The notes under the pieces are model-generated. The model ran no database searches and was not told where the DNA came from. It worked only from the letters and a program-made list of their open reading frames with translations. From Holothuria leucospilota (Eukaryota): 64,000 bases of DNA. The stretch spans positions 23,687,285-23,751,284 of the forward strand of contig CM055969.1 in assembly GCA_029531755.1 (NCBI GenBank), read 5' to 3'. Of the stretch, positions 1 through 56,077 are shown one piece after another (the stretch's first letter is position 1; each line of letters opens with the position of its first letter). A program made the translations under genes and the position numbers.

Positions 1-42
1 GGTTTCTGTCTCTGAACATAGGGAGTAAGATGACTGATTCTT

Positions 43-1545
43 TGCCAAAGGCAGGCAAGGAATCTGTGCTATGGTGATGTCGTGTATGTGTGTATGTGTA
101 TGTATGTGACCCCTAGCTTGTAAACACGATATCTCAAGATAGCACTGACCGACACATTTCAGATTTAGTGTATACATTCGTCATGTTGAGAGGAAGAAGC
201 CTATTGTTTTTGGTGGAGGTCAAAGGTCATTTGAAGTCACCAGAGGTCAAAAACCAAAAGCTTTGTAAACACGATATCTCAAGTAAGCAATGACCGACAC
301 TTTTCATATTTAAGTAAACAGATTTGTCATGTCAAGAGGAAGAACCCTGTAGTTTTTGGTAGAGGTCAAAGGTCATCTGAGGTCACCAGAGGTTAAACTG
401 CTAAAACTTCGTATTAAACGGCTTGTAAACACGATACCTCAAGGTAGCAATGACTGACACTTTTCATATTTGGTATATGGATTTGTCATGTTGTGAGGAA
501 GGATCCTATTGTTTTTGGTGAAGGTTAAAGGTCATTTGAGGTCACCGGAGGTAAAAGGCCAAAATGCTTGTAATCACGATATCTCAAGATAGGAATGACT
601 GACACTTTTCATATTTGGTATATAGATGTATCATGTTGAGAGGGAGAACCCTGGTGTTTTTGGTGGAGATCAAAGGTCATTTGAGGTCACCAGAGGTCAA
701 AGACCAAAAACCTTGACATCGTGGTATGTCAAGATAGGAATGGCCGATATAGATTTGTCATGTTGAGAGGAAGAATGCTGTTGTGTTTGGTAAAGGTCAA
801 AGGTCATGTGAGGTCACCAGTGGTTAAACTGCAAAAACCTTGTAAAATGGCTTGTAATCACTATATCTCAAGATAGCAATGACAGGCACTTTTCATATTT
901 GGTATATAGATTTGTCATGTTGAGAGAAAGAGCCCTATTGTTTTTGGTGAAAGTCAAAGGTCATTTGGGGACCCTGGAGCTAAAAAACTGAAAAGCTTGT
1001 AAACACAATATCTCAAGATAGGAATGAAGGACACTTTTTCGCATTTGGTATATAGATTTGTCATGTAAGGAAGAATCCTATTGTTTTTGGTGGAGGTCAA
1101 AGGTCATCTGTGGTTACCATAGGTCAAAAAGTGAAATTTCCCAAGAATTCCCAAGATTGCCATCTGGGGTAATCAAAGGTCAAAAAGCAAAGTTTTCCAA
1201 GAAGTCCCAAGATCATCATCTGAGGTCACCAAGGGTCAAAAAGCAAAATTTCCCAAGAATTCCCAAGATTGTCATCTGGGGTCACCAGAGGTCAAAAAGC
1301 AAAATTTCCCAAGAATTTTCAAGATCCAAGATCCATTGGAGTTGAATCCCTTTCGAGACACTTCCGTTTTTCCTTTTTGTTATATTTGGTGGGGTTCAGA
1401 GGTCATGTGAGGTCAGTAGAGATCAAATTGTTAAAACATCGTAAAATGATGTAGTCAAGAAAGATAAATTTGAGGGATAAACCTCAGTGCAACAAAGCAT
1501 CCCCATTCGGCAAGGAATCACTAAGCCTTTGGGCTTTCTAGTTTT
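43..1545 (+). mobile_element. Family A composite MITE-like element. Layout: hairpin-like 5' terminus (..ggcaggcaaggaatc), (TG)n at 86-108, about 7 satellite monomers of ~145-150 bp (114-1060), ~66-bp subrepeats (1130-1330), then the 3' terminus ..cattcggcaaggaatcactaagcctttgggctttct.
   Basis: The same ordered structure recurs in reverse orientation at 39459-40978 and as a satellite-free ~240-bp copy at 26653-26890. Both termini carry GGCAAGGAAT in inverted orientation. Confidence 0.75.
217..249 (+). promoter_or_regulatory. Example of the AGGTCA half-site cluster carried by every satellite monomer: AGGTCAaAGGTCAtttgAAGTCAccagAGGTCA (DR1 + DR4 + DR4 spacing)
   Basis: The motif is read directly. 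It is reiterated in each ~145-bp monomer of families A and B on both strands, e.g. 365-398, 513-546 and 8448-8470, and as tgacct..tgacc in minus-orientation copies. Confidence 0.4.
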
Positions 1546-2285
1546 AGAAAAGCAGAATACAACCAGGGAATGATAAAAATATTCTCTACAAGACAAAAAA
1601 AATCACCTTCCAAAAAAGTCTTCAAAATGTTTGGAAAATCAAAAGTTCCTCTTTAGTTTAATTTTCTAGTGCAAACACTGACTACGCCACATATTTACAA
1701 TAGAACTTATGCATACTACGTCACAGAACACCGGCAGAGGTAAGCGTGGATCATTACAACTTACACCAACACAAATGCAGACAGCTGATTTGTGTACTGG
1801 TCGGAATACGTGCGCGAGTCTACTACTGTATGTGCACACAGTGTGCTTCATTTTTTGCCCTCCAAAATGACCTCTGGGTGACGTCAAAACGTAAGGTCTG
1901 TTAGATGTTTCTGTAGCTATGCAAAGAAAGCTTACATGTTGAAAGATTCATTTGGTACAATTGTACATGTGTACACAACTGGCCAATCATAGGGAGGCAG
2001 GCAGTACATATAGAGGTGTTTCACCGATGTCACATGATGGTGCATCTCTTTGGTTGTTAGCATTTTGTGGGGCAAGCATCCATTGTGTCACAGTAGTGTC
2101 TATGGTTATTCTGTGTGTGTGTGCTGTAAATATGCTTACTGTTTGAGTGCTGTGCCCGATAATCCCAATCACGTGACATCAAATGAAATACCTGTATACA
2201 ACATATCTTGTATACACACTACTACACAAGCGTGTAGTAAAGTCATTGCATATAACTGCTCATCATGTTCTCTCCAATATCTTAG

Positions 2286-2417
2286 GGGATTGATGTTCCT
2301 AGAGAAGAACTTTGGTGGTGTCGTACAGGAGATGAACTTGAAACCAGAAGATGGACAGCTGCTAGCAGCAGTGAACCAGGAACTGAAACAATATGTCAGT
2401 TTGCTGGAAAAAGTCAA
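2286..2417 (+). CDS. MARS1: Methionyl-tRNA synthetase (cytoplasmic, MARS1-like) internal exon; translates ...GLMFLEKNFGGVVQEMNLKPEDGQLLAAVNQELKQYVSLLEKVK
   Basis: In-frame match to the MetRS anticodon-binding region (human ...[41 protein letters not shown]...). Acceptor AG at 2284-2285, donor GTATGT at 2418. Phase is consistent with the next exon (aa|a = Lys). Confidence 0.8.
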
Positions 2418-3161
2418 GTATGTAACCTCTGTATGAAATTATGGGTACTCTAGTGCAGTCAATGGTCTGTTTCTTATGTGAAATAATTGAAAATGAGTGA
2501 AGATATAATTGTTAAAAGATTGTCATGCAAATTGATTTTGACCATATTCAAAGCATATACAAGCCCATTTCTCACAACACTTTGTGAATTGCCCTGTTTT
2601 GAAAAATGACTTTGTAGAGTGGAACATTCTTAGCAAATTGGATAAGGTCTTGTTAGAAGGATGCATGTAGCATTATAGTGACCATTGCTGGAAAGGTCAA
2701 ACAGGCATGAATGTAATCAAGAATTCAGCTTGCTATGAATTTTGTAGTGAGGAATGAAGGCTGGTTCACAATTCCAAATTTTCACGTGCTGTAAAGGTTA
2801 AGAACTACATACTGTAAAGTCACCCTTTGCTCTTCCTGGCCATTCACAGATATAGCTCAGAGAGGAACAGTGTTCAACTTTCATAGCTTTACGGCACTAA
2901 ACTGAAGTATGAATCGCCTTTAGAGTGTCAGTAGTTTCCACATAGTAAAATATTTATTACTATGTAGAAATAGATCTTGTATTGTTCTCATATTCAGAAA
3001 TAACATGTTGTTGTCTTTATTTAACCTATCCCATTACTGGCTAATGTGCATTCATTGAGCATGTCAGGTCAAATTGTCACCTTTAATCATATGATGTTTT
3101 GTTCACCAAATACTCAGTTCCATTCATGTCATAGTAACTTTACGTACAATTGTTTTTGTAG

Positions 3162-3266
3162 AATCCGAGATGCTCTGCGTCATATCCTGAACATCTCCCG
3201 TTTTGGGAACCAACACATCCAGGCCACCAAGCCATGGGTTCTAGTCAAGGGGTCTGAGAAGGAGAA
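3162..3266 (+). CDS. MARS1: MARS1-like exon; [35 protein letters not shown]
   Basis: Matches human [34 protein letters not shown]. Acceptor ttgtag|, donor GTAAGT at 3267. Phase 2 joins to exon 3. Confidence 0.85.
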
Positions 3267-4506
3267 GTAAGTTTATGTTTAATTGCATGCTGCCTTCCTT
3301 TTTCTGCTAGTGTTAAAGTATTGGTTAATTTAATGTGTTTTTCTTTGTTACTGCTGATACACTGTCAGGGATGTGTCCACACCAGGTGGCACAAGGTCAG
3401 TCTTGGCACCCAGGACTTGTACATTTACCAAACACAGATTTAAAATTGGTCAGATTTAGCTGGGGTGTTTCTTTGGTATATGTTTAGCACAAAACTATCT
3501 GTCTACCATTTTGGGGACTGAGGAGTCACAATTTCCTGCCAGAACTCAATACTATTTGGGCACATTTCTGCACTGTGTTTGAATACTGTCATGAAATTTC
3601 TCATCACATCCAAAAATTCATGTTGTTGATGTATCGTCATTTAGAAAATACTTCATGTATCTGCAAAGATTTTGAGCTGATGTCATAGACATCTGTCCAT
3701 TAGGGTCCGGGATGACGGGCTATGGTTCGGGTTTGGGGTGAAATTTTTCATAATTAAGTGTCACTCTGTGAATGTAACTATAGATGTACCGCTCCCCATC
3801 TCCTTCCCTGTTTTATTTATTTTATTTTTATTTCAACCTTCAAGGGTAAAACTCATTTAGCAATTGATACAAAATGCTAATCTTACATGAGGCCCTCAAT
3901 GTAGTTCAAAATTTAAGAAGTATAAAAAGTGAAAACATGTATATATGTACAAATAAAGAACAAAAGGTAAATGAAAATAATACACAGAAGTGAACCTATA
4001 CAGTACTAGAAAGTTCAAAGTTCAGGCCCTTAAATTTTTTTTTTTTGCTCCATTTCTTTCTTTCTTTCTTTTTTCAATGCTTGTTCATAAGTTATGTACA
4101 TGTAATTTACATACAGGGGTAATACATTACATTGTAGTGTGCATCCTTTACTTTGGGCTAGACATATTGTACATGATCAAGGCTCGTGATAATATACCTG
4201 CCCATGTGGAATTAAAAGCACATGCATACATCTATGAACATTTCTTTTGAATGCAGGATAACACAAAACATTCCATATGTACAGTACAATGGTTTTATAA
4301 TATTATGATCTCTTTGTTTAGCAAAACTACTCAACAGTGGTGCAGAGCAATGGTTTTGAACCCTTCAAGTATCTAAAAGCTGGGAATACACTTTCATATG
4401 TCAGATTGGGACAATTATTGGGGATTCCACTAGTGGGACTGGGAGAAATTTTGAATATTTGTAGAAGGGATGCATGCAATCACAATGGCCTTTGTGTGTT
4501 TCTGAT

Positions 4507-5540
4507 GCAAAGCTTGTAAACACAATATCTCAAGATAGTCCTTAATGTGGTATATAGTCATTTTTAGAGCTCTATTGTTTCGGGTGGAGGTCAGAGGTCA
4601 TTTGAGGTCACAGAGGTAAAAGCTGCAAAGCTTTAAACGCAATATCTCAAGACAGGAATGTGGATATTTTAATACTTTTATATAGATTTGTCATATTGAG
4701 AGGAATAACCTATTTTTGGTAAAGGTCAAAGGTCATCTGAGGTTACCAGAGGTGAAACTACGAAAACCCAAGAAAACTGCTTGAAAGCACAATATTTCAA
4801 TATGCAAAACATTGAAGGGTCTCATGTCTAGCATGTGATTGCCCGTATTGAGGACAAGAATCATGTTGTGTTTGATATTGTTTTTGTGGAGGTGAAAGAT
4901 CATTTGAGGTTACCATATAAGTAAAATTTTGCAGAGCTCATTAACACAGAAGAAGGGTAAACCTTGATGGGTTTTATGCTTAGCTTTACATGCTCTACAT
5001 TTAATGCAAAACCTCTTTGCATTTTGATGGAGTTCAAAGGTCTTTTTAGGTTATCAAAAGTCAAAATGTACAAATGTGTTAAACATGATACCACAAGAAG
5101 TGTTACTTGAAGGATCTTTCACTTAGCATGGAGATGGTTGACAATAAATTCAACACCTCTGTTGTTCTGGTGGAGGTCAAAAGTCTTTTGAGGTCACCAG
5201 AGGTCTAACAGAAAACCTGGTAAACAAGATGTCTTAATAAGGATAATTTTGTAAGATGTAATAATTTGCACGTAGATGCTCCATAGCAACAGTTGATAAC
5301 TAAAAGAACCTTACAGTGTTTGGTGGAGATAAAAAGGCATTTGAACTCACAAATGTCAAACTAGGAAAACCTTGTTAACATCATATCCCAGGAAGGGAAG
5401 CTTTGGCGACTCTTGTACTTGACAGATAGGTGCCAAATCTTATATAAAGAATAGAAGAAACCTATTGATTCTATTGGAAGTCAAAGGTCATTTGGGCTCA
5501 TGAGAGGTCTAGCTGTGAAATTATGTAAGCCTAATATATC
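4507..5540 (+). repeat. Degenerate older array of the ~145-bp satellite (cttgtaaacacaatatctcaag...ggaggtcagaggtcatttgaggtcac...), without the terminal modules
   Basis: Diverged monomers are recognisable at about 4507, 4635, 4790, 5040, 5160, 5320 and 5465. Confidence 0.55.
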
Positions 5541-6169
5541 TCAAGAACTGAAATAGTACATGTCAAGATCTTTTGTTCTCCCACCACCGATCACTGCCCA
5601 GCGCTCCCCCTCACTACTTAAAATTACCCCGCACCAAGCAGAATGAAAGGATTTGACATGTAGACTGGGCGTATTTTCTTTGCAAGGAATCAGAGAACAG
5701 ACATTCTGGTTACTTGATGTGACCACTGCTTTGAACCTTATTGGCCAAAATATCACAATGCCTTTGTAACTTTTAAGATTAAACACTGCACCATACACAT
5801 TTACCGTAACTCCTCCTTAATAATATACTAAATTACACACACTCCTTTGTCCTCCCGGACACAAGTCCACAATAGCCATCCAGTGCAGTGAATGACTGAT
5901 GACAGTACTACATGACTTATGCACTGCCACATCGTTGGAGGCAGGGGACATACTCCCTTTTGGCTCTTCAGTGTTTGTTACCTTAGAATACAAAGGAATC
6001 AGTTTTGTTCAGAACAGAGTACTCACAGCTACCATAGCTATTCAGGTATTAGATACAACTCAGGCACACAACATACGTGTTTGCATAACAAAAAGAGAGG
6101 AACCCATTCCTGTGTCCACCAAATCCCTTGAGCTATCCCTGACTCTTTGTAAACTTTGTAAATTCCATG

Positions 6170-6660
6170 ACTTTTCCGTTTGGAAAATCAATACTTTTCC
6201 CTAAATTCCCTGCTTGCTAGTAACCTTATACAGTGTGCAGACTATAATCTCATAAGAAAACATTAAAAGTTAATTAACTTGAGAATAAAAAAAACAACCT
6301 TGAACCAACAGCTTATTGCTCTTGGATGAAAAATTAGTTAAACTTTGACCCAAAATGACATTTGACTTCCTAATTTTAGATTCTTAATGCTTCAAATGGA
6401 TGACTCCCTGACTTTTACCTGTTTGGAAAAATCAATACTTTTCCCTGAATTCCCTGCATGCTAGTAACCTTGTACATTGTGCAGACTATAGTCTCATAAG
6501 AAAACATTAAAAGTTAGTTAACTTGAGAATAAAAAAAACAACCTTGATCCAACAGCTTATTGCTCTTGGATGAAAAATCAGTTAAACTTTGACCCAAAAT
6601 GACATTTGACTTCCTAATTTTAGAGCCTTGATGCTTCAAATGGATGTCCCTTAGCTCTTA
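6170..6660. repeat. Tandem duplication of two ~243-bp units, immediately 3' of the NAT stop codon
   Basis: Near-identical copies: ttggaaaatcaatacttttccct(a/g)aattccctgc...ctaattttaga... repeated at about 6177 and about 6420. Confidence 0.8.
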
Positions 6661-6705
6661 CACTCTTCTGTACAGTAACATCAGATTGTATTACATGCAT
6701 ACACA

Positions 6706-7605
6706 TTATATCAGTTTGCTAAATTTGAAGACTTTTTCAAGCTTCTTGACTGAATATTGAGGATAATGTTCCAGAAAAAAGTCCATCAGTTCTGTCTTTT
6801 TCATGGTAACCCTTTCTGTGGTGTCATCCTTCAGGTTGTAAAATGTTGCATGGGTCTGACCATCTAAACACACAATGTTTACATGTAATTGCTCAGTTAA
6901 GAATGTAGAGAAGAGTAAACTGTCAAATGGCTTACTGAAGATACTGCCACGTTTGACATACTCTTGCCACTTTCCAATGAATGTGGACCATGCGACTTGT
7001 TTACTGAGCCTGTACTCTAACATTAGTTGCCAACGTTCCCCATTTGAGTCGCATATGACTGGTGTGTCAGGATCAGGGGCTAAAGGAATGCAAAGCAGCA
7101 AAATGTCATTCTTTGTCTTGAAAAATTTGATCTTAAATTTATGAAATGTGTATACAGGGGACTCCCTCTCAAAATCAAGGGGAACAGCTGTATAGAGGGG
7201 GTATCTCATGCCAGGGTCCACCAGATGGCGACTTCCAGGGTAAGAAATATCACAGACGATGGTGCTGATATGGGTGTCTTTGTCAATAGGCCTATCTATT
7301 ATTGGATGGTTCATACCAGGTATGTGGTAGGTGATATGTCCAAGTTGCTCTAGTATGACCTTGGTGAAAGGATTTATCCAGATACAGGTCCCCCCTTGGC
7401 CTGACAGAATGTGGTATTTGAAATCTTCAGGCGTCAAGTCTGGGAACTTTCCTGCCAAAAGGTTTATGTTCGTGAAAGGTAGACTTTTCTTTATCCCTTT
7501 GATCACATCATTCAGGAAGTCCAATGATTTTCCTCCAGCATGCACTTGTGAACGGCATATCCCTAAACTGTTGTCTAGGAAAGTGAATGCTTCCTCCTTT
7601 GTCAA
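6706..7605 (-). CDS. NAT: Arylamine N-acetyltransferase (NAT), complete intronless 299-aa CDS
   Basis: An uninterrupted 900-nt ORF. The N-terminus MTKEEAFTFLDN resembles human NAT1 MDIEAYLERIGY. SLPFTNINLL aligns with VPFENLNIH. GQGGTCIWIN aligns with RGGWCLQVN and places a Cys at the catalytic Cys68 position. THISTIVCD aligns with MIHLLLQVTID and places a His at the His107 position. HLVDPGM aligns with YIVDAGFG and places an Asp at the Asp122 position. Length is 299 aa, typical for NAT. Confidence 0.85.
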   Translation of the reverse strand: MTKEEAFTFLDNSLGICRSQVHAGGKSLDFLNDVIKGIKKSLPFTNINLLAGKFPDLTPEDFKYHILSGQGGTCIWINPFTKVILEQLGHITYHIPGMNHPIIDRPIDKDTHISTIVCDISYPGSRHLVDPGMRYPLYTAVPLDFERESPVYTFHKFKIKFFKTKNDILLLCIPLAPDPDTPVICDSNGERWQLMLEYRLSKQVAWSTFIGKWQEYVKRGSIFSKPFDSLLFSTFLTEQLHVNIVCLDGQTHATFYNLKDDTTERVTMKKTELMDFFLEHYPQYSVKKLEKVFKFSKLI

Positions 7606-7676
7606 CAGGTACGGTACTTCTTTGCCTTGTGTTGTCTAAATGGTAGAAAGATAATTAAAAGAATGTTACCATTTCT

Positions 7677-8718
7677 GGTTTCGATGATAAGAGAAACCTA
7701 TGCATTCATGATGGCATATGTGTGTATGTATGTGTGTATGTGCATGCACTCACCCACGTGGCCTTAGCGGGTGTGAGAGCTCTGCTCTCGCAGCGTCTCT
7801 CCTAGCTCACACGCGGATAGAAACCGGCGTAGCTGCCTGAAAATTCGGCAACTGCGAAGAGAAGTGGCTGCACATGTCTGCCTTGGAGCGCAGCTTGCCC
7901 TCAAGCACGTACATCCACTCGACTCGTTTGTGGGCAGCTCCGCTGCTGGGAATTTCTCTTGGATTCCCTACCCTACCGGGTCCTTGCCTGGTAGCCCGTA
8001 AGGCATGGAGTGTGCGTACTGTATGTGTGTGTGTATGTGTGTTTGTGACACTTTGCTCGTTAACATGATATCTCAAGAAGGGAAACTCTGACAGTTCTCA
8101 AACTTGGTACATAGATGCCCCATATTGAGAGGAAGAACCCTATTGTTTTTGGTAGAGTTCAAAGGTCATCTAGGGTCACCGGGGGTCAAACACTGAAAAC
8201 CTTATTAACATAATATCTCAAAGGAGGAAGCTTGGATAGATTTTATACGTAGTATGTGGATGCATTGTGGTGAAAAGATGAACCCTATCATTTTTGGTGG
8301 AGGTCATCTGGGGTCAATGGGGGTCAAACACTGAAAACCTTGTTAAAATGTATTTCCAGGTAGGAAGCTTGAATAGATTTCATACTTAGTGTGTGGATGT
8401 GTTATGGTGAAAAGATGGACCCTATTGTTTTTGGTGGAAGTCAAAGGTCATCTTGGGTCACGAGAGGTAAAAAAGCAAAATTTCCCTAGAATTCCCAATA
8501 GTTTGATGTGGGTTCACCAGAGGTCAAAGAGCAAAATTTCCCAAGAATTCCCAAGATCGTCATCTGGGGTCACCAGAGGTCAAAATGCAAATTTCCCAAG
8601 AATTAAATGGGAACACAAAACAGTATTTTTCCAACATGTTAAGATAGCATTTGACCATTGACTGAAAGATATGGGACATCATGGATTTATCTGGAATAGA
8701 ACATATATCATCGAAACC
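7677..8718 (+). mobile_element. Family B composite MITE-like element, copy 1. Layout: 13-bp TIR GGTTTCGATGATA inside a hairpin, (TG)n, about 3 satellite monomers (8050-8460), ~66-bp subrepeats (8470-8620), then the inverted TIR at 8706-8718.
   Basis: The 5' end ggtttcgatgataagagaaacc is itself a hairpin. Its 3' end is the reverse complement of the 3' end of the copy at 52801-56077. The element lies 72 bp upstream of the NAT start codon. Confidence 0.75.
7741..8020. mobile_element. GC-rich ~280-bp insertion that splits the (TG)n microsatellite of family B copy 1; candidate SINE-like insertion
   Basis: Absent from the otherwise collinear copy at 55935-56040, where the (CA)n tract is uninterrupted. 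Local GC is far above the flanks. TG-repeat sequence resumes on both sides. Confidence 0.5.
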
Positions 8719-9112
8719 TCAATGCATTTTTGCATTCTGGTTCTTAAAATAGTGCAGACAAGCTGCTAACAACAATGTTGATAATAAACACACTCAACAT
8801 TCTTCAATGATAAATCTCCATACCTCTTTCAGTATTGGCCTCAGAAATTAAGCTGGGGTCTGGTTTAATGCTGATGCAATGCCGCTTGTTAATCGTAATC
8901 AGATGTCCCTAAGATCCCGTACAAACTACAGATTTGTTTCTCCAATCATCATAAGTGTCTCATAATCTCTCTCACATATGCAAAAATTATAGGCTTACAC
9001 AAACTGACAGGGTTATGCTTAGGTCTATTGCATTGTAATTCATATGGATATGAAGTTACTAGAGAAGATTGTTCTCTTCGGCAACTGCTTGAGACGGGAT
9101 ACCCACTAGCCA

Positions 9113-24500: not shown

Positions 24501-24774
24501 TTAAAGAAATCACTTTTAATCCTCCCCAGACTCTAAAAAAGGTTTATAGTGAATCAGATGCCATACATTAGCACAAAGGTTACTTATGATGTGATACTCT
24601 AATAAAAACATGCATGTGATAAACAACTTAGTTACTATGGTGTTACTATCACCTTTGCTTAAAGGGCACACAAAGTTTGCAGGGTCATACCTCCATATAT
24701 TCACATAGCGATGAACGAGAAAATGCCACTTATTGAACCATATGCACAAGTGATATACAATTTTACCATCTCCT

Positions 24775-25620
24775 TTGACAAATCACAACGATTTTACTAC
24801 GTCAAATCTTCCATTTTCTTTGGCCATGCTGCTTCCATTTCATCTGCATACGTATGAATGGATCTTAAAAACATTTCTTACGAGTAAATTCAATCCATGT
24901 TACAGCTTTAAGCTTAATTTTTTTTTTTGGGCAGTGATTATTACATAATTTTATACGTATCTTCCACACATGATTATTTCCCACCAATTCTATTGGTCAG
25001 GAAAAATGCAAGCATTGCTTAAGCCTTACATAGCTTTGTGAAAACTAGCAAAAAAAGATTTCTCCTAATGAAGCCTTTTCACTAAAAAAAAAAAAACAAA
25101 AAAATGAGAAAACAGGACAAACATAGAACACTTCACAACCACACACATTTCTACTCCAAATAAACACTCTGCCCCTCACCCCTTTGACAAATCACAAAGA
25201 TTTTAAGTCAAATCTTCCATTTTCTTTGGCCATGCTGCTTCCATTTCATCTGCATACGTATGAATGGATCTTAAAAACCTTTGTTGCGAGTAAATTCACT
25301 CCATGTTACAGCTTATTACAGATTATTACATAATTTTATACATATCTTCATAATCTTCCACACATGATTATTCCCATCAATTCTATTGGTCAGGAAAAAT
25401 GCAAGCACTGTTTAAGCCTTATACAGCTTTGAGAAAACTAGCAAAAGAAGATTTCTCCTAATGAAGCCTTTTCACTAAAAAAAAAGAAAAAAAAAAGTGA
25501 GAAAACACAACAAACATAGAACACTTCACAATCACACACATTTCTACTCCAAACAAATACTCTGCCCCTCACCCCCACCCTCACCCCACCCCCGACAAAA
25601 GACATTAAAAACATTTGATA
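24775..25620. repeat. Tandem duplication of two ~425-bp units in intergenic DNA
   Basis: gacaaatcaca(a/c)gattttac..tcttccattttctttggccatgctgcttccatttcatctgcatacgtatgaatggatcttaaaaac.. is repeated at about 24777 and about 25195, including the poly-A segment and the acacttcaca(a/t)ccacacacatttctactccaaa(t/c)aaa(c/t)actctgcccctcaccc tail. Confidence 0.8.
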
Positions 25621-26652
25621 AAAAAAGAGCAAACAATAAATCTCTTATGACCCCTACTCGTTCAATACTATACAAACTCATACCTAATTAACAACTACAA
25701 CTAGTACTACTTTGAGGTTTTACCACTTTTCTAACATGCCAAACATTCTGAATTGGGTCAAGGGTCACAAAAGATATAGATCTGGCAACATGTAAAGATC
25801 CACTTTAAACACCATTGAAAACCCTTTCATTCTTACCAACTAGAAACAAAATCATTAATTACTATTCCACACAACTGAGAAGTTATAACATATTTTCCAA
25901 AGTCTCCTTCACTCTTTGACAAAGAGCCAAAGGGAAATAACCAACCCCTAATCCTGGAGGAGTTTTGCTCCCTGAAGGAGTTACAAACCTAAGCGACACT
26001 AAGAATAAAGCAACCAACCTCTTGACCTTCAGACCTCTACATCATGGGTCTGTCAAGTGTGGCCCCGTTCCAGACTAGCTGAAAAGTGCAGATATTACAC
26101 ATAATTTTATCCTAAAGGCCAAGAATTTTAGAACTTGTAATAGTAGCAGAGAAAACTGAGTTATGCAATGCAAAAAATTCTTCATCCAATCAAACCTATC
26201 AAATTCAATAAGACAACAACCCTTCTTTTATTTAAATACATAAAATATATACCTTCTTATCTCTCTGTTTTTTATTTCCTTTGATGTTTTATGTCACTCA
26301 GACAAAACACTTATGTCTAAACCATTATTAAAAAGAAAAGATTTTTGTATATCATGACATCATTGGACAATAAAAGACATGCCGAAAACTGTTACATATT
26401 TGAAATTTTTCATACCCTATTTACTTTCTTCATGTTGGTCAAATTTGAATAAGTGTGTTTTAACAGTATATTTAATTACCCTTAGCAAATGCGAATGTAA
26501 GCAGAGAACATGTCTCCACAGTAGAAATAAAGTGCAAGAGTTTTTCTGAGATTCATAGTTAACTTTGCAACTACCACCCATAAGACGAAAGAGCCCAGAG
26601 GAAGAATCCATAGGAAAATCTATAAACTACAGCTCCAAAGATTTATGTATAA

Positions 26653-26890
26653 CCAGAAAGCCAAAAGGCTTAGTGATTCCTTGCCAATGAAACTTAAAAA
26701 GCAATCTTCGAAGCACCAATCATGTTTGCTAATGACGTTCTCTCCCTAAACTCATGTTTTGAGGTTACCCTTCTTGAGATAGTGTTTACAAGCTAAGTGT
26801 CACATACACACACATACATACAGCAGACACACACATACATACGGCTAACATGGCATCACCGTTGCATAGATTCCTCTATGTCAGGGAATC
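26653..26890 (-). mobile_element. Family A element in minimal (MITE) form: both termini and the (AC)n tract, no satellite array
   Basis: Runs accagaaagccaaaaggcttagtgattccttgcc..cttcttgagatagtgtttacaagc..gtcacatacacacac..catcaccgttgcatagattcct. About 240 bp. Confidence 0.7.
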
Positions 26891-27584
26891 AAAAGCTTTG
26901 TCTGGTCTCAACCTTTCTCAAATTCACATAGTAGGCCTAGGCCTATACATACTGAAAAGTTTGTATGATGTACGCCACAGAATTACGCCAAATTATGTCA
27001 TGCAATGGGACTAATATTTCACGGTATACCGGTATTTTTGTAAGTACAAGTATATACCGGTACCCATATGTTACCACCCATCATAAGATACCAAAGTATC
27101 GATGAGAACCGTACCCGATGGTACTGCGAAAATATTTTTTGAAAATACAATTGAATGGAATATTACTGAATTATAAACACCACATCCATTGGATAACTGC
27201 CTTGCATTTTTTATATTAAATTATAAACCTGAAACGTGCATTTGATAATTATTTTTCACCATTCCAATAACAAATTTCACCTCGGAAATGTTAATTTTAA
27301 TGTTATCCTATGTTGCTAATGAGTACCCTTGTGACGTTTGTTTTAACTTGGAGAATAAAAGTTTGCAAAAACAGCTTTGCGTTGTATTTGTAACTCATCT
27401 AAGCTTTAAACTATTATAGAAAATATTATTAACCAATGGAGGAGTACAACAGTATTTATGAAAAACTATACATGAAAACATACAGCTTCCTCAAAATGTG
27501 CTTGCAGCATAATGGTTCCGTAAGTATAGGCCTACACATTACTATGCATAGTATACAGTGTGCAGATATTTACTAACATACTGG

Positions 27585-28612: not shown

Positions 28613-30789
28613 GAATTGCGACTGAACGAAACATAAACTGGGGAGTACTGTACAATTGCCACAAACCCCATTAGCAATATCATGGCACCCTTAAGGGAAG
28701 AGTTGGCGCTCTATTCCCTTCTACCATAGCACCACAGTGGACACAGGTTGGGCCAAGTCCAGGGTAACATATGGCGGAGCCACTCCATGAATGTTGCGAA
28801 TAAGGGTCCAAGGAACCATTAACTGACATCCATGTACCAATATTCCATTTTCAATAGTACATAGTCGGGCCGAAGCCACAGTCGGGAGAATGGCAGTGAC
28901 AAATAATGCTATCTATGCTCAAATCTTTTTGTTCTTATTGTGAGTCAAGTATTCACTTCTCTTAAATAAGAAGAGTATAAATATTGCTGCCACATCCCTA
29001 GCCACATCCCGGCCATAATCTTAACCAAAGTCTCTCACAGAACAAACTATAAATGGAACTTCGAAGCCCACAGTACTGCCATGCAACTAGGCCAACTTGG
29101 CTATTTCACACCATCTTACCGTGTAATGCATATACACAAACACAGGGTGTAGGCCCACATGTGCTTGTTTTTAGGTGTTTTAGTATCATAAAGAGGGGTA
29201 GGTACTGCATGCACGCACTGTATATTACTAGTTTACTACATAAGTATCCGTTCGATACTGTCCACAAATCGATGGACTGTACTCGACTACGTACGCATTA
29301 TGTAGGCCTATGAGTTGATAGATCGAATGTGGCCTACTGTCTTTGTGATTTGCTACAAAGCATGAAAAATTTGCTGCATGAAATGTGAACTAGGGTTGTA
29401 GCCTACCCACAAATATTAGCAGAAAATTTTGTTGTGGTTCACTGACCTGGCGCGGACCAGAGTAGCTACAACCCTGACTCTCTATCACTTAATAAGCTTA
29501 GTTTTGAGCTGATGAATCTAAACATTTTTGCAGGTATTTTGTGTTAAAAACTGGACTATTTTCTCTAATGGAACCAGTATTGCGGTATTACCGGTACCAT
29601 TTGTGGCAGTACCAAATTTCAGCGGTACCGTGAAACCTTACAGGGGACTAGGCCTATGCCACGCCAACTTATTGTTAACACCCCAGTCTCAGAAAGCATA
29701 ATCCTGCAGCCTGACACTACAATACATTACTGTTGGTTACTGCAGACATAGGCCTACTGTGTATTTGGCTTAAGGTGTAGGCTAGGCTAACATTAGTGTT
29801 TGTTATAGTACCGACATTCACTTTAGTATGCCCCCCCCCCCCCCCCCAATGACGTCGGCATCGTGCACCAAAGCGGGCAAAGCCAGTACGGCATACAATT
29901 TCATTTGCCACAGATCTGCATGAAAACTCTTGAACTTTCCTGTATGGGCCTAGGCTATACTCGTAGGTAGGTCTTGGCCTAACTGATTTCTACAAATCAT
30001 TAGCCAGCTGCCTACATGTAACTTTGTAAGACCCTTCATTCTAACGATACTTGCACTTAGTAACACTAACAGTTAGTCACAGGCTGTCCTAGCGTTATAC
30101 AGTAAACGAGTAAGTTAATACCTTAGGCTATATACAGTACATATAATAGTGGAAAGGTAGCGCACTTCACAGCCTTTCGCCTTTCGGTACCAACTTCGCC
30201 TGCCTGAATCACGCTGTTCATGCCTTATTCTCCGTTATCAATTCACAACAATCTTCCAATCGTGCCCGTACAGCACTTCTGTGGTATGACGACTCATTTG
30301 GACCGATAAATGTGTTTAAAAAAAGGAATATTTTTCTGCGAAAATTTCGTTTGCACATGATCACGTTTAGTCGTCGCGATGGTGACGTCACTTGTATAAA
30401 GGGATTTCCCCCATCTTCGAAATCCGGTCCTCCCACTGGATAGTTCGGCCTATCGTCATGAGAGACTCACTACGTCAGGACAACTATCCAATGGGAGAGC
30501 TGAATACCATCAGCTAACAGCTATCATGATCTTCTGGATACGGATGCCCTTGGGGTATGGTTAAGTTTTACAGACCGTGTAGTAAATATACGTAGACCGT
30601 TATCACATTATTGATATGAATGGTTCATCACAGCTACCGTAGAATGCAGACCTTTAAAGAAAATGCCAATTTTGACCTCAAATGACTTCTAATCTTCATG
30701 AAATTTTAGGACAAATATGTACTACATAAAAGCCAGCTACACAGCAAGTTTCAAGTTAAACCAAGTTCTACATTCAAAGATATTGTGCT

Positions 30790-31206
30790 TGGACGATTTT
30801 GGCCCTTTTCACCTCTGGTGACCCCAAATGACCTTTGACCTCTACCAAAAACGATAGGGATCACCTTCCTGATATGGGCCATGCACATGCCAAGTATGAG
30901 ATTCCTTGAAGTTACACATCTTGAGATAGAGTGTTTACAAGCAATTTCTATGGCGTTCACTATTTGACCTCTCGTGACCCCAAATGACCTTTGAGCTTCA
31001 CCAAAAACAATAGGGATCATCTACTCAATATAGGGTATCCACATGCCAAGTATGAGGTTCCCCAAGATTACCTTTCTTGAGATAGAGTGTTTACAAGCAG
31101 CGTCACACACACACACATACATACGCACACACACACATACACACACACATACACACACACGCCATCACCATCGCATAGATTCCTTGCCTGCCTTCGGCAA
31201 GGAATC
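30790..31206 (-). mobile_element. Family A element, truncated copy: two satellite monomers, (AC)n and the terminal hairpin attccttgcctgccttcggcaaggaat
   Basis: tgaccccaaatgacctttgacctctaccaaaaac.. monomers, then gtcacacacacacac..gccatcaccatcgcatagattccttgcctgccttcggcaaggaatc. Confidence 0.65.
31095..31160. repeat. (AC)n / (ACAT)n microsatellite module of family A elements. Equivalent tracts at 86-108, 26790-26850 and 40880-40935; family B tracts at 7700-7740, 8021-8046 and 55935-56040.
   Basis: Direct reading of the dinucleotide runs adjacent to the element hairpin terminus. Confidence 0.85.
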
Positions 31207-39110: not shown

Positions 39111-39458
39111 CTTGAGAAAAGATATAAAGTTACCTTATATTTTTCTGATTAATCAAGTTTTTGAATGAAATAAAGGTAAATGAATACTGTAATACAGGTC
39201 CATAGCCAGACAAGGTAATGAAAAGGGGTGAAACAACTTCTAAAGGGGGGGGGGATAATTTTGGGGGGCAATGCATAATTAAATGGATTAAGGCAGTAGT
39301 AATTTTGAAATCTGTAGGAGGCCAAAAATTTCCTGAGGGGACTGCCCCTCACCCCTCTCTCCCATTAGCTACAGGCTTGCTGCAATATCACTCCATTCCT
39401 TCATCTTATCAGCATTAAATTCAAAGGTAGAATCATGCTGTCATCGACTCTGAGATGA

Positions 39459-40978
39459 ACCAGAAAGCCCAAAGGCTTAGTGATTCCTTGCCGAATGGGG
39501 ATGCTTTGTTGCACTGAGGTTTATCCCTCAAATTTACAAGTATCACAAGTATTCAACATCCCTGTCTTGAAATGTCATGTTTTTAAATGCATTTGGTCTT
39601 TGACCTCTGATGACCTCTACTGACCTCTGACCTCCAATCGATCTTGGATCTTGAAAATTCTTGGGAAATTTTGCTTTTTGACCTCTGGTGACCCCAGATG
39701 ATGATCTTAGGAATTCTTGAGAAATTTTGCCTTCTGACCTTTTGTGACCCCAGATGACACTCTTGGGAATTCTTGCTTTTATACGTCTGGTGACCCCATG
39801 ACAATCTTGGGAATTGTTGAGAAATTTTGCTTTTTGACTGCTGGTGACCCCAGATGATGATCTTGGGAATTCTTGGGAAATTCTGCTTTTTGACCTCTGG
39901 TGACCCCAGTAACAATCTTTGGAATTCTTGGGAAATTTTGCATTTTGACCTCTGGTGACCCCATATGACGATATTGGGAATTCTTGGGAAATTTTGTTTT
40001 TTGACCTCTGGTGACCTCAGATGACCTTTGACCTCTACCACAAACAACAGGGTCCTTCCTCTCAACATGATAAATCTATATACCAAATATGAAAAGTGTC
40101 GGTCACTGGCAACTTGAGATATCGCGTTTACAAGCCGTTTATGAGGTTTTCGCAGTTTAACCTCCGGTGACCTCAGATGACCTTTGACCTCTACCAAAAC
40201 AATAGGCTTCTTCCTCTTGACATGACAAATCTGTATACCAAATATGAAAAGTGTCCTTCACTCCTATCTTGATAAATTGTGATTACAAGGTTTTCAGTCT
40301 TTTACTTCCAGTGACCTCAAATGACCTTTGACCTTTACCAAAAACAATAGGGCTCTTCCTCTCAACATGACAAATCTATATACCAAATATGAAAAGTGTC
40401 GGTCATTGCTAACTCAAGATATCGTGTTTACAAGCTGTTTATGAGGTTTTCGCAGTTTCACCTCCGGTGACCTCAGATGCCCTTTGACCTCTACCAAAAA
40501 CAATAGGCTTCTTCCTCTTGACATGACAAATCTGTATACCAAATATGAAAAGTGTCGGTCATTGCTACCTTGAGATATCATGTTTACAAGGTTTTTGCTT
40601 TTTGACCTCTGGTGACCTCAGATGACCTTTGACCTCTACCAAAAACAATAGGCTTCTTCCTCTTGACATGACAAATCTGTATACCAAACATGAAAAGTGT
40701 CGGTCATTGCTACCTTGAGATATCATGTTTACAAGGTTTTCACTTTTTGACCTCTGGTGACCTCAGATGACCTTTGACCTCTACCAAAAACAATAGGGTT
40801 CTTCCTCTCAACATGACAAATCTATATACCAAATATGAAAAGTGTCAGTCATTACTTACTGGAGATATCGTGTTTACAAGCAAGGCGTCACATACACACA
40901 CACACATACACACATACGCACACACACACACACGCCATCACCATCGCATAGATTCCTTGCCTGCTTTCGGCAAGGAAT
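39459..40978 (-). mobile_element. Family A composite element, complete copy in reverse orientation (intronic in the WD40 gene)
   Basis: Begins accagaaagcccaaaggcttagtgattccttgccgaatgggg and ends ..gtcacatacacacacac..gccatcaccatcgcatagattccttgcctgctttcggcaaggaat. Contains ~66-bp subrepeats at 39600-40010 and ~145-bp monomers at 40010-40870. Confidence 0.8.
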
Positions 40979-52246: not shown

Positions 52247-52800
52247 CTAGGAGGAGAAGGAAAAATACAAGAAATAACAGATGCAAGTCCAAACAGTTGT
52301 GGAAAGAACTTAAATCGCATGACAAAATTGCAAGTACCATGGATCAGACTTGTAGTGAGTATATACTTGTACTCACAGTTCTGCACAATTGTCTGTACTC
52401 ATACTTATGAGAATGAATTTATACTCATACTCATACTAACAACCAAAGATACTCTGCTTGTACTCATACTCATGACAATGTACTCACAGTACAAGTCTGC
52501 TATGGATGCCCCATAGTACCGCCAACACAACTGCCACTGTTGCCACTTTTTTGTCCAAAGCTGTACCAATATATATTGAGTCTGAACTTAATCTCATCAC
52601 AAGGAGTATCTTAAACTTTTCCATACAAACATTTAGATTTTATACCACAAAGGACAGACTTCTCTTTGATTATACATGAAAAAAGCAGTAAAATTAGTTA
52701 TCAGCAGTTCACACAAGTGGTTAGGGAAACATAAATATTACAGACAATGTTTCCACACTTCTAAGATTTATTCTAAAACCAGAATGCAAAAATGCATTGA

Positions 52801-55800
52801 GGTTTCGATGATATACTGTATGTTCTATTCCAAATAAAGCCAAGATGTCCCATACCTTTCAGTCAATGGTCAAATGCTATCTTAACATGTTGGAAAAATA
52901 CAGTTTTGTATTACTATTTAGTCTTGGGAATTCTGGGGAAATTTGCGTTTTGACCTCTGAAGACCCCAGATGATGATCTTGGGAATTCTTGGGAAATTTT
53001 GCTCTTTGACCTCTGGTGAACCCATGTGATATTCTTGGGAAATTTTGCTTTTTTTACCTCTGGTGACCCTAGATGACCTTTAAACTCCACCAAAAACAAT
53101 GGGGTACATCTTCTCACTATAACACATCAATTTACCACGTATGAAATCTATTCAAGCTTCCTACCTGGAGATATCATCTTGAAAAGGTTTTCAGACATTG
53201 ATCTCTGGTGACCCCAGATGACCTCTGACCTCCACCAAAAACAATAGGATTCATCTTCTCACTATAACGCATCTACATACTAAGTATGGAATCTATCCAA
53301 GCTTCCTACCTGGAGATATTGTGTTAACAAGATTTTCAGAGTTTAATCCCCAGTGACCCCAAAAGAACTTTGACCTCCACCAAAAATGATAGGATTCTTC
53401 CTCTTACTATAACGCATCTACATACAAAGTATGAAATTTATCCAAGCTTCCTACCTGGAGATATCAGGTTAACAAGGTTTTCAGGGTTTGACCCCTGGTG
53501 ACCTAAAATGACCTTTGACCTCCACCAAAAATGATAGGCTTCTTCCTCTTACCATAATACATCTACATACAAAGTATGAAATTCATCCAAGCTTTGTAAC
53601 TCACGTTATTGTGTTAACAAGATTTTCAGGGTTTGACCCCCGGTGACCCCAGATGACCTTTCACCTCCATCGAAAATGATACTGTTCTTCCTCTTACCAT
53701 AACGCATCTATATACAAAGTATGAAATTCATCCAGGCTTCCTACCTCGAGATATTGTGTTAACAAGGTTTTCAAAGTTTGACCCCCGGTGACCCCAGGTG
53801 ACCTTCGATCCCCACCAAAAACAATAGGGTTCTTCCTCTTAGTATGGGGCATCTATGTACCAAGTTTGAGAACTGTCACAGTTTCCCTTCTTGAAATATC
53901 GTGTTAACGAAGTTTTCAGGGTTTGACCCTCAGTGACCCCAGATGACCTTTCACCTCCACCAAAAATAATAGGATTCTTCCTCATACCATAATGCATCTA
54001 CATACAAAGTATGAAATTCATCCAAGCTTCCTACCTCAAGATATTGTGTTAACAAGGTTTTCAGAGTTTGACCCCCGGTGACCCCAGGTGACCTTTGACC
54101 CCCACCAAAAACAATAGAGTTCCTCCTCTTAATATGGGACATCTATGTACCAAGTTTGAGAACTGTCACAGTTTCCCTTCTTGAAATATCGTGTTAAAGA
54201 AGTCTTCAGGGTTTGACCCCCGGTGACCCCAGATGACCTTTCACCTCCACCAAAAATAATAAGGTTCTTCCTCATACCATAATGCATCTACATACAAAGT
54301 ATGAAATTCATCCAGGCTTCCTACCTCGAGATATTGTGTTAACAAGGTCTTCAAAGTTTGACCCCCGGTGACCCCAGGTGACCTTTGACCCCCACCAAAA
54401 ACAATAGAGTTCCTCCTCTTAATATGGGACATCTATGTACCAAGTTTGAGAACTGTCACAGTTTCCCTTCTTGAAATATCGTGTTAAAGAAGTCTTCAGG
54501 GTTTGACCCCCGGTGACCCCAGATGACCTTTCACCTCCACCAAAAATAATAAGGTTCTTCCTCATACCATAATGCATCTACATACAAAGTATGAAATTCA
54601 TCCAGGCTTCCTACCTCGAGATATTGTGTTAACAAGGTTTTCAAAGTTTGACCCCTGGTGACCCCAGGTGACCTTTGACCCCCACCAAAAACAATAGGGT
54701 TCTTCCTCTTAATATGGGACATCTATGTACCAAGTTTGAGAACTGTCACAGTTTCCCTTCTTGAGATATCGTGTTAACGAAGTTTTCAGGGTTTGACCCC
54801 CGGTGACCCCAGATGACCTTTCACCTCCACCAAAAATGATAGGGTTCTTCCTCATACCATAACGCATCTACATACAAAATATGAAATTCATCCAAGCTTC
54901 CTACCTCAAGATATTGTGTTAACAAGGTTTTCAGAGTTTGACCCCCGGTGACCCCAGGTGACCTTTGACCCCCACCAAAAACAATAGGGTTCTTCTTCTC
55001 AATATGGGGCATCTATGTACCAAGTTTGAGAACTGTCACAGTTTCCCTTCTTGAAATATCGTGTTAACGAAGTTTTCAGGGTTTGACCCTCAGTGACCCC
55101 AGATGACCTTTCACCTCCACCAAAAATAATAGGATTCTTCCTCATACCATAATGCATCTACATACAAAGTATGAAATTCATCCAAGCTTCCTACCTCAAG
55201 ATATTGTGTTAACAAGGTTTTCAGAGTTTGACCCCCGGTGACCCCAGGTGACCTTTGACCCCCACCAAAAACAATAGAGTTCCTCCTCTTAATATGGGAC
55301 ATCTATGTACCAAGTTTGAGAACTGTCACAGTTTCCCTTCTTGAGATATCGTGTTAAAGAAGTTTTCAGGGTTTGACCCCCGGTGACCCCAGATGACCTT
55401 TCACCTCCACCAAAAATAATAGGGTTCTTCCTCATACAATAATGCATCTACATACAAAGTATGAAATTCATCCAGGCTTCCTACCTCGAGATATTGTGTT
55501 AACAAGGTTTTCAAAGTTTGACCCCTGGTGACCCCAGGTGACCTTTGACCCCCACCAAAAACAATAGGGTTCTTCCTCTTAATATGGGACATCTATGTAC
55601 CAAGTTTGAGAACTGTCACAGTTTCCCTTCTTGAGATATCGTGTTAACGAAGTTTTCAGGGTTTGGCCCCCGGTGACCCCAGATGACCTTTCACCTCCAC
55701 CAAAAATGATAGGGTTCTTCCTCATACCATAACGCATCTACATACAAAATATGAAATTCATCCAAGCTTCCTACCTCAAGATATTGTGTTAACAAGGTTT

Positions 55801-56077
55801 TCAGAGTTTGACCCCCGGTGACCCCAGGTGACCTTTGACCCCCACCAAAAACAATAGGGTTCTTCTTCTCAATATGGGGCATCTATGTACCAAGTTTGAG
55901 AACTGTCAGAGTTTCCCTTCTTGAGATATCGTGTTAACGAGCAAAGTGTCACAAACACACATACACACACACACACACACATACACACACACACATACAC
56001 ACACACACACGAACATACACACATACATACACACACACGCCATCATGAATGCATAGGTTTCTCTTATCATCGAAACC
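52801..56077 (-). mobile_element. Family B composite element, copy 2, carrying a greatly expanded satellite array: about 10 x 290-bp dimers, ~66-bp subrepeats at 52920-53060, and (AC)n at 55935-56040
   Basis: Termini ggtttcgatgata (52801-52813) and tatcatcgaaacc (56065-56077). Seven identical or near-identical artefact ORFs recur at exactly 290-bp spacing (53951, 54241, ... 55691), with identical pairs 1,160 bp apart (53951=55111; 54821=55691). Confidence 0.8.

Follow-up and report, generated by a model that had tools for sequence, protein, structure and literature searches.

The ~145-bp tandem repeats in a 64,000-nucleotide window of the sea cucumber Holothuria leucospilota genome (contig CM055969.1, positions 23,687,285 to 23,751,284) appear, with somewhat better than even confidence, to be the central repeats of non-autonomous Helentron-type rolling-circle transposons of the HINE/DINE-1-like kind, in which a row of AGGTCA hexamers would provide homology at the repeat junctions and resemble nuclear-receptor half-sites incidentally. 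A preliminary description of the window had treated the arrays as a satellite whose monomers carry half-site clusters arranged as direct repeats with one- and four-nucleotide spacers (DR1 and DR4), and had proposed selection on the motif or on protein binding to it or, alternatively, a link between the motif and the biology of the element itself. The position of the arrays inside transposons supports the latter suggestion.

Element copies were located with a terminus pattern scan, which revealed seven in the window (E1-E7, Table 1), jointly accounting for 14.8% of its sequence. The layout from left to right consists of a 5' inverted-repeat module, a (TG)n microsatellite, 2-20 monomers of ~145 bp and a right flank. 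In complete copies the 145-bp array is followed by a second array of 56-bp units, and in family A a solitary copy of the conserved core stands before the right flank. The right flank is composed of the reverse complement of the 5' repeat, then a 5-6-bp hairpin and the terminus CTGGTT. The 5' module reads GATTCCTTGCCGAAGGCAGGCAAGGAATC in family A and GGTTTCGATGATAAGAGAAACC in family B. Family A contains a 14-nt subterminal inverted repeat (subTIR), GATTCCTTGCCGAA at the 5' side and TTCGGCAAGGAATC at the 3' side, together with an internal inverted repeat, the (TG)n tract, the hairpin AAGCC-tttg-GGCTT and the CTGGTT terminus. Family B contains a 12-nt subTIR pair (GGTTTCGATGAT / ATCATCGAAACC) and the hairpin AATGCA-tttt-TGCATT, with the same CTGGTT end. 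The internal inverted repeat GGCAAGGAAT is positioned 6 nt past the 5' subTIR, the 3' subTIR starts 35-36 nt from the element end and the 3' hairpins of both families end 6-7 nt short of the terminus.

The external DNA comprised seven loci (L002-L008), which have the same flanks and the same core in otherwise divergent monomers. The boundaries recur within each family, with one pair of 5' and 3' ends in E1, E5 and L004 (family A) and another in E3 and E6 (family B); the copy in L004 is a complete one with the family termini, at positions 1417-2675 of an unrelated Tara Oceans contig. The (TG)n tract lies ahead of the first monomer in E1, E3, E4, E5, E6, E7, L002, L004, L005 and L006, and the core is always oriented towards the right flank. 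The 5' flanks are TTTTTG at E4, L002, L004 and L006, T9 at E5 and TTTTT at E6, and the 3' ends read ...GGTT, or GCTT in L007. No flanking direct repeat indicative of a target-site duplication was found at any copy, and the sole empty site, a paralogous unit in L004 that is ~75% identical, gives an inexact comparison compatible with simple insertion after ACTT. A single open reading frame (ORF) of at least 110 amino acids was found inside the elements, at 39583-40197 in E5, and is a read-through of the repeats. The elements are provisionally filed as HINE-like on structural grounds, because of the shared subTIRs, internal inverted repeat, microsatellite, central repeats and 3' hairpin, with the T-rich flanks and the lack of a visible target-site duplication as tentative further resemblances. 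Within this window the term satellite does not hold, as each array is an internal part of a transposable element with definite limits; classical satellites form long homogeneous arrays, heterochromatic or centromeric, without mobile-element flanks, and the arrays of the window have 2-20 units inside transposon flanks.

This layout has been described for DINE-1 of Drosophila, for the HINEs of mites and for Cg_HINE of the Pacific oyster, in accounts of the HINE/DINE-1-like non-autonomous Helentrons (Thomas et al., 2014, PMC4067079) and of the oyster elements (Vojvoda Zeljko et al., 2020, PMC7492417). The bivalve elements Pearl, DTC84 and MgE and the sea-urchin Tsp elements are cited as related kinds (PMC4067079, PMC7492417), the Tsp elements as DINE-1-like (PMC4067079), and Helentron proteins have been reported in sea urchin (PMC4067079). 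The holothurian elements are similar to HINEs in being non-coding, with a 5' subTIR beside the terminus and an internal inverted repeat, a microsatellite closing the left flank and, in the centre, satellite-like repeats of 140-180 bp that all point the same way and at times form two arrays in succession. The resemblance extends to the 3' subTIR followed by a short hairpin near the end and, tentatively, to the T-rich flanks and the absence of a visible target-site duplication. The 14- and 12-nt subTIRs and the 5-6-bp hairpins fall within the sizes of ~11-15 nt and 5-10 bp that characterise HINEs. The joining of the same flanks to different repeat types is shared with Cg_HINE group 2, and a relatively conserved segment common to otherwise divergent monomers is shared with Cg_HINE. 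The oyster Cg_HINEs are the nearest described relatives in layout, along with the sea-urchin Tsp elements, which are placed here by their citation in PMC4067079 only. There are differences between the systems. The microsatellite is (TG)n here and mostly a tetranucleotide repeat in the oyster elements, the 3' subTIR lies 35-36 nt from the end compared to 38-60 nt in mite HINEs, and the oyster monomer passages compared, mainly of cluster CL1 among 13 clusters and read without alignment, show no four-hexamer core. A full-text literature search found no description of HINE-like elements in sea cucumbers, and a DR1+DR4+DR4 row of AGGTCA hexamers was not found reported as the conserved segment of any HINE.

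The hexamer AGGTCA occurs 127 times in the window, compared to 37 +/- 5 expected from dinucleotide-preserving shuffles. The consensus core, AGGTCA-a-AGGTCA-tytg-RGGTCA-ccrg-RGGTCA, corresponds to DR1+DR4+DR4 and recurs in ~45 monomers of ~145 bp. A scan with the 35-nt core AGGTCAAAGGTCATTTGAGGTCACCAGAGGTCAAA at up to 11 mismatches gave 49 places in the window, at 217-8584 on the plus strand and 30807-55841 on the minus strand, all of them within arrays with a period of ~137-156 bp or 56 bp that were also reported by Tandem Repeats Finder (TRF). The earlier count of about 45 monomers was reproduced by nhmmer, which recovered 45 near-full monomers with a profile built from monomers, and the family-B core, located at 8156-8190, has the sequence previously quoted for it.

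The spacers are 1, 4 and 4 nt in the consensus of every monomer type, giving the hexamers the form of an internal direct repeat with 7/10/10-bp spacings, and every type consensus contains RGKTCA direct repeats (at least two half-sites with 1- or 4-nt spacers). The RGKTCA pattern has 69 DR4 and 13 DR1+DR4+DR4 matches across the window, every one of them within the repeat elements. The claim that every monomer carries the DR1/DR4 cluster is accurate for each type consensus and fails for most individual monomers, since four RGKTCA hexamers are present in only 12 of the 45 and four exact AGGTCA hexamers in 3. By the RGKTCA definition the DR1 is intact in 22 of the 45 monomers, the first DR4 in 33 and the second DR4 in 23. 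In the array at 114-1128, six of whose seven cores lie inside the originally flagged segment 180-1060, none of the seven monomers has all four half-sites. At hexamer position 1 a large share of the differences are exchanges of A and G. Position 5 (C) is lost from the fourth hexamer in 25 of 68 monomers and from the first in 16 of 68, ten of which have G instead, giving the AGGTGA of the B2 consensus. The motif was thus described correctly at the level of the consensus, and the observation as a whole is partly confirmed.

Conservation between the monomer types was measured on 70 monomers aligned to the profile, with sequence weighting applied to the major-base frequencies. These were 0.874 for the 35-nt core, 0.83 for the preceding 18 nt (CCCTATTGTTTTTGGTGG), 0.82 for the first 22 nt of the monomer (CTTGTAAACACGATATCTCAAG) and 0.71 for the 60-nt middle. 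Divergence, calculated as the pairwise mean between the consensuses of types A, B1, B2 and D, the four with good sampling, was 0.375 in the middle, 0.159 in the first block, 0.129 in the core and 0.083 in the 18-nt block. This block, directly 5' of the core and without a half-site, has the lowest divergence of all segments. Inside the core the divergence was 0.111 for half-sites and 0.204 for spacers. The core had been singled out as the most conserved part of the monomer; it is indeed kept while the middle diverges, but the CCCTATTGTTTTTGGTGG block is at least as conserved. The conserved unit is a ~85-nt frame that spans the monomer boundary, the best-kept part of which contains no receptor half-site. 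Conservation between types is not specific to the receptor-contact bases, because the spacers and the motif-free flanking block are conserved as well.

Within families the core has changed as fast as its surroundings. Mismatch to the family consensus for core and rest was 0.103 vs 0.114 in A, 0.025 vs 0.032 in B1 and 0.077 vs 0.087 in B2. Private singleton substitutions, taken as the cleanest proxy of decay after insertion, affected 31 of 1149 core positions in family A (0.0270) compared to 81 of 3232 elsewhere (0.0251), a ratio of 1.08 (Fisher p=0.74) with a 95% interval from the counts of ~0.71-1.63. The corresponding ratio in family B was 1.19. Half-sites and spacers were alike, with singleton rates of 0.029 and 0.024 respectively and 0.025 outside the core. 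Neither these rates nor the between-type comparison, in which the 18-nt block is the most conserved, point to a constraint concentrated on the half-site bases. In the old copy E2, six of the seven monomers showed no significant core advantage against the nearest type consensus. An apparent protection of the E2 core was rejected, as it largely disappeared with the nearest-type comparison and the earlier signal was an artefact of mixed monomer types. Recovery of the external copies by way of the core peptide should tilt the comparison towards a conserved core, and nonetheless none was seen. The preliminary description had named such a rate comparison, together with receptor binding in vitro, as its refutation test, and the proposal of selection on the motif or on protein binding to it does not pass the computational half of that test: no host-level selection on the motif is apparent, because private substitutions are as frequent inside the core as outside it.

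The anatomy of the arrays suggests how the core could remain uniform. At the end of every unit, 145-bp and 56-bp alike, stands either the complete core or its 3' two-thirds, and the first array gives way to the second within the core itself. One monomer, at 8290-8330, is missing exactly one 7-nt sub-unit and one L002 monomer is missing exactly one 10-nt sub-unit. The core may therefore supply a common homology at the unit junctions, where slippage or unequal exchange would build the arrays and alter their length. Duplication, deletion and homogenisation of units at the core would preserve its uniformity in the element lineage with no need for selection at the insertion sites, and the abundance of the motif would derive from element transposition and internal array amplification, not from upkeep of each genomic copy. 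The motif would then be conserved only in the element lineage, along with ~50 nt of motif-free flanking sequence, and decay at the neutral rate after insertion. Since the motif would be a lineage feature of this kind, its DR1/DR4 resemblance is most likely incidental and would represent at most a latent binding potential.

Several observations weigh against this interpretation. The window contains no autonomous Helentron ORF (Rep/helicase/AP-endonuclease), no copy of the core lies upstream of the first monomer, and the junction and slippage role is one that we infer from the anatomy only. Across divergent types the monomer middle is clearly less well preserved than the core and above all its hexamers, and mismatch was lower in the core than in the rest both in L002 (0.09 vs 0.26, p=2e-5) and in group C (0.14 vs 0.26, p=1e-3). 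The solitary terminal copy has kept its hexamers while the spacers have changed (AGGTCAgAGGTCAgtagAGGTCAtcagAGGTCA), as predicted by selection for a hexamer-binding protein in active elements. The within-family sample is also small (33 + 23 monomers from ~10 loci); it excludes strong constraint on inserted copies and is compatible with weak constraint (< ~25%).

The conservation of the hexamers would also be expected if the row were a binding platform for a host receptor of the RXR, HNF4, COUP-TF or TR type, kept in active masters because binding opens chromatin or drives transcription favouring mobilisation, much as proposed for the heat-shock elements of Caenorhabditis Helitrons, while inserted copies decay neutrally. 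We regard this alternative as unlikely. In a variant of it, active elements may need a hexamer-binding protein, supplied by the host as a receptor or encoded by the element itself. Besides the terminal copy, the alternative draws on the retention of the hexamers and of the DR1/DR4/DR4 spacing in types A, B1, B2 and D and in those of L002, set against 37% divergence of the 60-nt middle, and on the tolerance of RGKTCA for either A or G as the first base of a hexamer. One rar and one rxr gene are present in echinoderms (PMC8834484), whose products may or may not recognise such response elements, and the tandem heat-shock element clusters in Helitrons bound by HSF-1 form a precedent (PMC6927752). 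Against it, conservation reaches the 18 motif-free nt (0.083) and the first 22 nt of the next monomer (0.16), and constraint is therefore not limited to the receptor-contact bases. Hexamer position 5 is important for receptor contact, yet is the position so often lost from hexamers 4 and 1. A copy free of repeats exists (E7), and non-autonomous elements in general need their termini alone for mobilisation. The spacing is itself of little specificity, since a receptor label would have been available for any value from 0 to 5.

The principal reading of the preliminary description, that many copies are hormone-response enhancers whose half-sites are maintained by host selection, is disfavoured and seems very improbable. 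The consensus does agree with the canonical DR1 and DR4 arrangements, the DR2 sites of Alu are a known case of receptor elements carried by a transposon (PMC1785376), and copies lie in an intron of the arylamine N-acetyltransferase (NAT) gene and, by reading of the flank only, apparently beside an exon at E6. These points are opposed by the equal private substitution in half-sites, spacers and rest, by the small fraction of monomers with four usable half-sites and by E2, in which six of seven monomer cores are no better preserved than the non-core sequence. The NAT example is also intronic and antisense. The NAT ORF (6706-7605, minus strand) has as its named relatives only H. leucospilota arylamine N-acetyltransferases, with identities of up to 65%, and is 97% identical to the protein encoded on contig L001, assembled from run SRR27871391. 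These named relatives, and the lack of the core in the oyster monomer passages compared, led to the rejection of a bivalve origin, which the architecture of the elements had at first suggested. L001 is apparently a spliced transcript, because it aligns to the window in three blocks (11227-11116, 9987-9796 and 7635-6077) with canonical GT..AG borders. On these exons E3, antisense to the gene, falls within NAT intron 2 and stops 41 nt short of the splice acceptor on its upstream side. The copy had been described as promoter-proximal, 72 bp upstream of NAT; the distance is correct when counted from the ORF start, but E3 is inside intron 2 and not promoter-proximal.

A chromatin or structural role, in which the unit positions nucleosomes or forms a satellite or centromere-type repeat with a CENP-B-box-like core, is the least probable reading and barely credible. 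The unit length of ~145 bp is close to the size of the nucleosome core, the hexamers repeat every 10 bp and one array has 20 monomers with a 290-bp higher-order repeat, but the window arrays are short (2-20 units) and transposon-bounded, one being in the NAT intron and another apparently beside an exon by flank reading, and inserted copies showed no sign of constraint. The role is in keeping with the discussion of conserved boxes within the monomers of oyster HINE repeats (PMC7492417). DNA folding of six single monomer strands was no better than that of shuffles (z -0.5 to +2.45). A structured RNA, single-stranded DNA element or hairpin role was rejected on the folding result and on the absence of an Rfam match in positions 1-9000 at E<=0.1.

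Table 1. Coordinates of the HINE-like copies E1-E7 in the 64-kb window and of the parts resolved within E1 and E5.
Feature	Position	Strand	Description
HINE copy E1	37-1543	+	family A, complete; contains the flagged 180-1060; 5' ATTCTTTGCCAAAGGCAGGCAAGGAATC at 37-64, 3' GGCAAGGAATCACTAAGCCTTTGGGCTTTCTAGTT at 1509-1543
E1 left flank	37-64	+	5' subTIR ATTCyTTGCC and internal inverted repeat GGCAAGGAAT; module also in E4, E5, L004, L006
E1 (TG)n-like microsatellite	81-108	+	closes left flank; microsatellite at same position in E3-E7
E1 145-bp array	114-1128	+	seven monomers, each ending in DR1+DR4+DR4 core; TRF period 145, core scan, nhmmer
E1 cores	217-251, 363-397, 522-556, 667-701, 794-828, 951-985, 1094-1128	+	core scan
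E1 second array	1103-1325	+	four 56-bp units, each AAAATTTCCCAAGAATTCCCAAGAT plus core 3' two-thirds GTCATCTGGGGTCACCAGAGGTCAAA; TRF period 56, 83% matches
E1 solitary terminal core variant	1393-1427	+	GGTTCAgAGGTCAtgtgAGGTCAgtagAGATCA; before right flank; E5 counterpart 39599-39633
E1 right flank	1509-1543	+	3' subTIR GGCAAGGAAT, hairpin AAGCC-tttg-GGCTT, terminus TCTAGTT
HINE copy E2	4424-5721 (5' limit approximate)	+	old, degenerate; seven heterogeneous monomers 4506-5512
HINE copy E3	7677-8742	+	family B; three monomers 8054-8473, 56-bp units 8447-8604; termini GGTTTCGATGAT... and ATCATCGAAACCTCAATGCATTTTTGCATTCTGGTT
HINE copy E7	26651-26895	-	family A flanks intact, ~245 bp; microsatellite, ~40 nt of one monomer
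HINE copy E4	30650-31205 (3' limit approximate)	-	perfect family-A left flank; two D-type monomers 31099-30807
HINE copy E5	39458-40978	-	family A, complete; six 145-bp monomers 40885-39999; terminal core 39633-39599
E5 second array	40025-39647	-	~seven 56-bp units
HINE copy E6	52777-56077	-	family B, complete; 20 monomers 55943-53052; 56-bp units 53041-52922

The individual copies differ in completeness and in the length of their arrays. The eroded flanks of E2, read by eye, are GATTCCactagtgGG... and ...gcaaggaatcagagaacagacattctggtt. E7 has neither tandem repeats nor the AGGTCA core, and could be either an internal deletion or a repeat-less variant still able to transpose. No right flank was recognised for E4, the D-type monomers of which differ from A-type monomers by 34% outside the core, and this copy is evidence of either module shuffling or truncation. 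The E6 array is a higher-order repeat of 290 bp composed of two monomers (B1+B2; TRF period 290, 9.9 copies, 91% matches). The unit counts of the other copies are far below its 20, and a local satellite-like expansion after insertion is suggested. Within the (TG)n microsatellite of E3 lies an unrelated GC-rich segment of ~270 bp (7745-8010), and at the corresponding point the Tara copy in L006 contains another, dissimilar insertion (730-1095). The junction between microsatellite and repeats is therefore seemingly a hot spot for variable filler DNA, in line with what has been reported for the oyster Cg_HINEs. Two other two-copy tandem duplications are present in the window, at 24772-25575 (period 393, 88% matches) and 6164-6646 (period 244, 93%), and contain no AGGTCA core.

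Copies of the family were also recovered outside the window. A protein database search with the 204-amino-acid ORF of the E5 array gave 39 matches, 18 of which are H. leucospilota entries on chromosome-scale contigs, with a best identity of 90%. Seventeen of these are listed as 'hypothetical proteins', and the eighteenth is annotated as a COMM-domain protein and contains a segment derived from the repeat. The remaining matches come from Tara Oceans metagenome contigs and from L007, a contig of a sibling sequencing run. Core translations of both kinds, A-type VKGHLRSPEVK and B-type GQRSPGVTGGQ, are found among the matches. A scan of metagenomes with the core pattern returned one contig, L002 (JACSEG010049578.1). 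The family is dispersed genome-wide in Holothuria, because of the chromosome-scale matches and of the same flanks and core in the external loci.

A protein-coding reading of the arrays was rejected; the matches are unannotated, without Pfam domains and in varying frames, apart from the weak COMM-domain match P0049, which has a repeat-derived segment. At least 18 annotated H. leucospilota proteins translate or contain HINE repeats, including HOLleu_07304 and a COMM domain-containing protein 3 model. Such proteins include P0011, P0016-P0018, P0021, P0024-P0025, P0028-P0030, P0032, P0034, P0044-P0046 and P0049. They probably represent artefacts of annotation or pieces of the repeats that have been exonised.

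Complete or partial holothurian-type HINEs were also observed on 'marine metagenome' contigs, namely L003-L006 and L008 (Tara Oceans PRJEB4352) and L002, and their presence therefore indicates echinoderm DNA, from larvae or environmental DNA, in plankton assemblies. The host sequence around the HINE of L004 (200-1400 and 2700-3300) is a different tandem repeat of ~100-200 bp, with units carrying paired GGTCA motifs such as AGGTCATTGGCCACAATGGTCAG. L007, from run SRR27871390, a sibling of the run of the NAT contig, contains 56-bp HINE units and a right flank at 1-575 that are 75-84% identical to the window copies. If this run is RNA-seq, which is inferred only, another copy of the family is transcribed, probably within a longer transcript.

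Transcription-factor motifs have been described in two other transposon families, in both of which binding has been measured (PMC6927752, PMC1785376). The Helitrons of Caenorhabditis that carry heat-shock elements (Garrigues et al., 2019, PMC6927752) are likewise a rolling-circle family with a dense tandem overlapping motif scattered near and in genes. They differ in that HSF-1 binding, by chromatin immunoprecipitation sequencing, and heat-inducible neighbouring genes have been demonstrated, while the holothurian case is known from sequence alone and its motif is not maintained in inserted copies. The Alu DR2 retinoic acid response elements of primates (Laperriere et al., 2007, PMC1785376) are similar in that RGKTCA direct repeats are spread through introns and gene flanks, most copies being degenerate with consensus sites kept in a subset only. 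Alu, however, is a short interspersed element with one DR2-type cluster, whereas the present family is a DNA transposon with an internal array that multiplies DR1+DR4+DR4 2-20 times per insertion.

What appeared to be a satellite with hormone response elements is re-filed here as the cargo of a Helentron-type transposon. The family is probably a holothurian member of a known transposon kind carrying a previously unreported and probably incidental row of receptor-like motifs, and the sequence evidence argues against a maintained regulatory function. The literature searched has no account of this class in sea cucumbers, although oysters, flies and sea urchins have related elements. In this window the elements occupy ~15% of the sequence, and annotation pipelines render them as 'hypothetical proteins' in H. 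leucospilota. Scans of holothurian genomes for DR1/DR4 motifs will be dominated by this repeat, and masking is advisable. The neutral-decay result spans ~56 monomers, and active masters or a minority of insertions could still depend on receptor binding. It is rather improbable that the Helentron-derived family has seeded the holothurian genome with thousands of DR1+DR4+DR4 clusters, 2-20 per insertion, of which a gene-proximal subset is bound by receptors of the RXR-partner, HNF4 or COUP-TF type. We give similarly small credence to receptor binding being real and biologically used, which would make the family considerably more interesting. If true, an echinoderm would possess a network of hormone- or retinoid-responsive enhancers assembled by a transposon, comparable to the Helitron heat-shock elements of nematodes. 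The family is a tractable test case for rolling-circle transposons spreading receptor-binding sites in a deuterostome.

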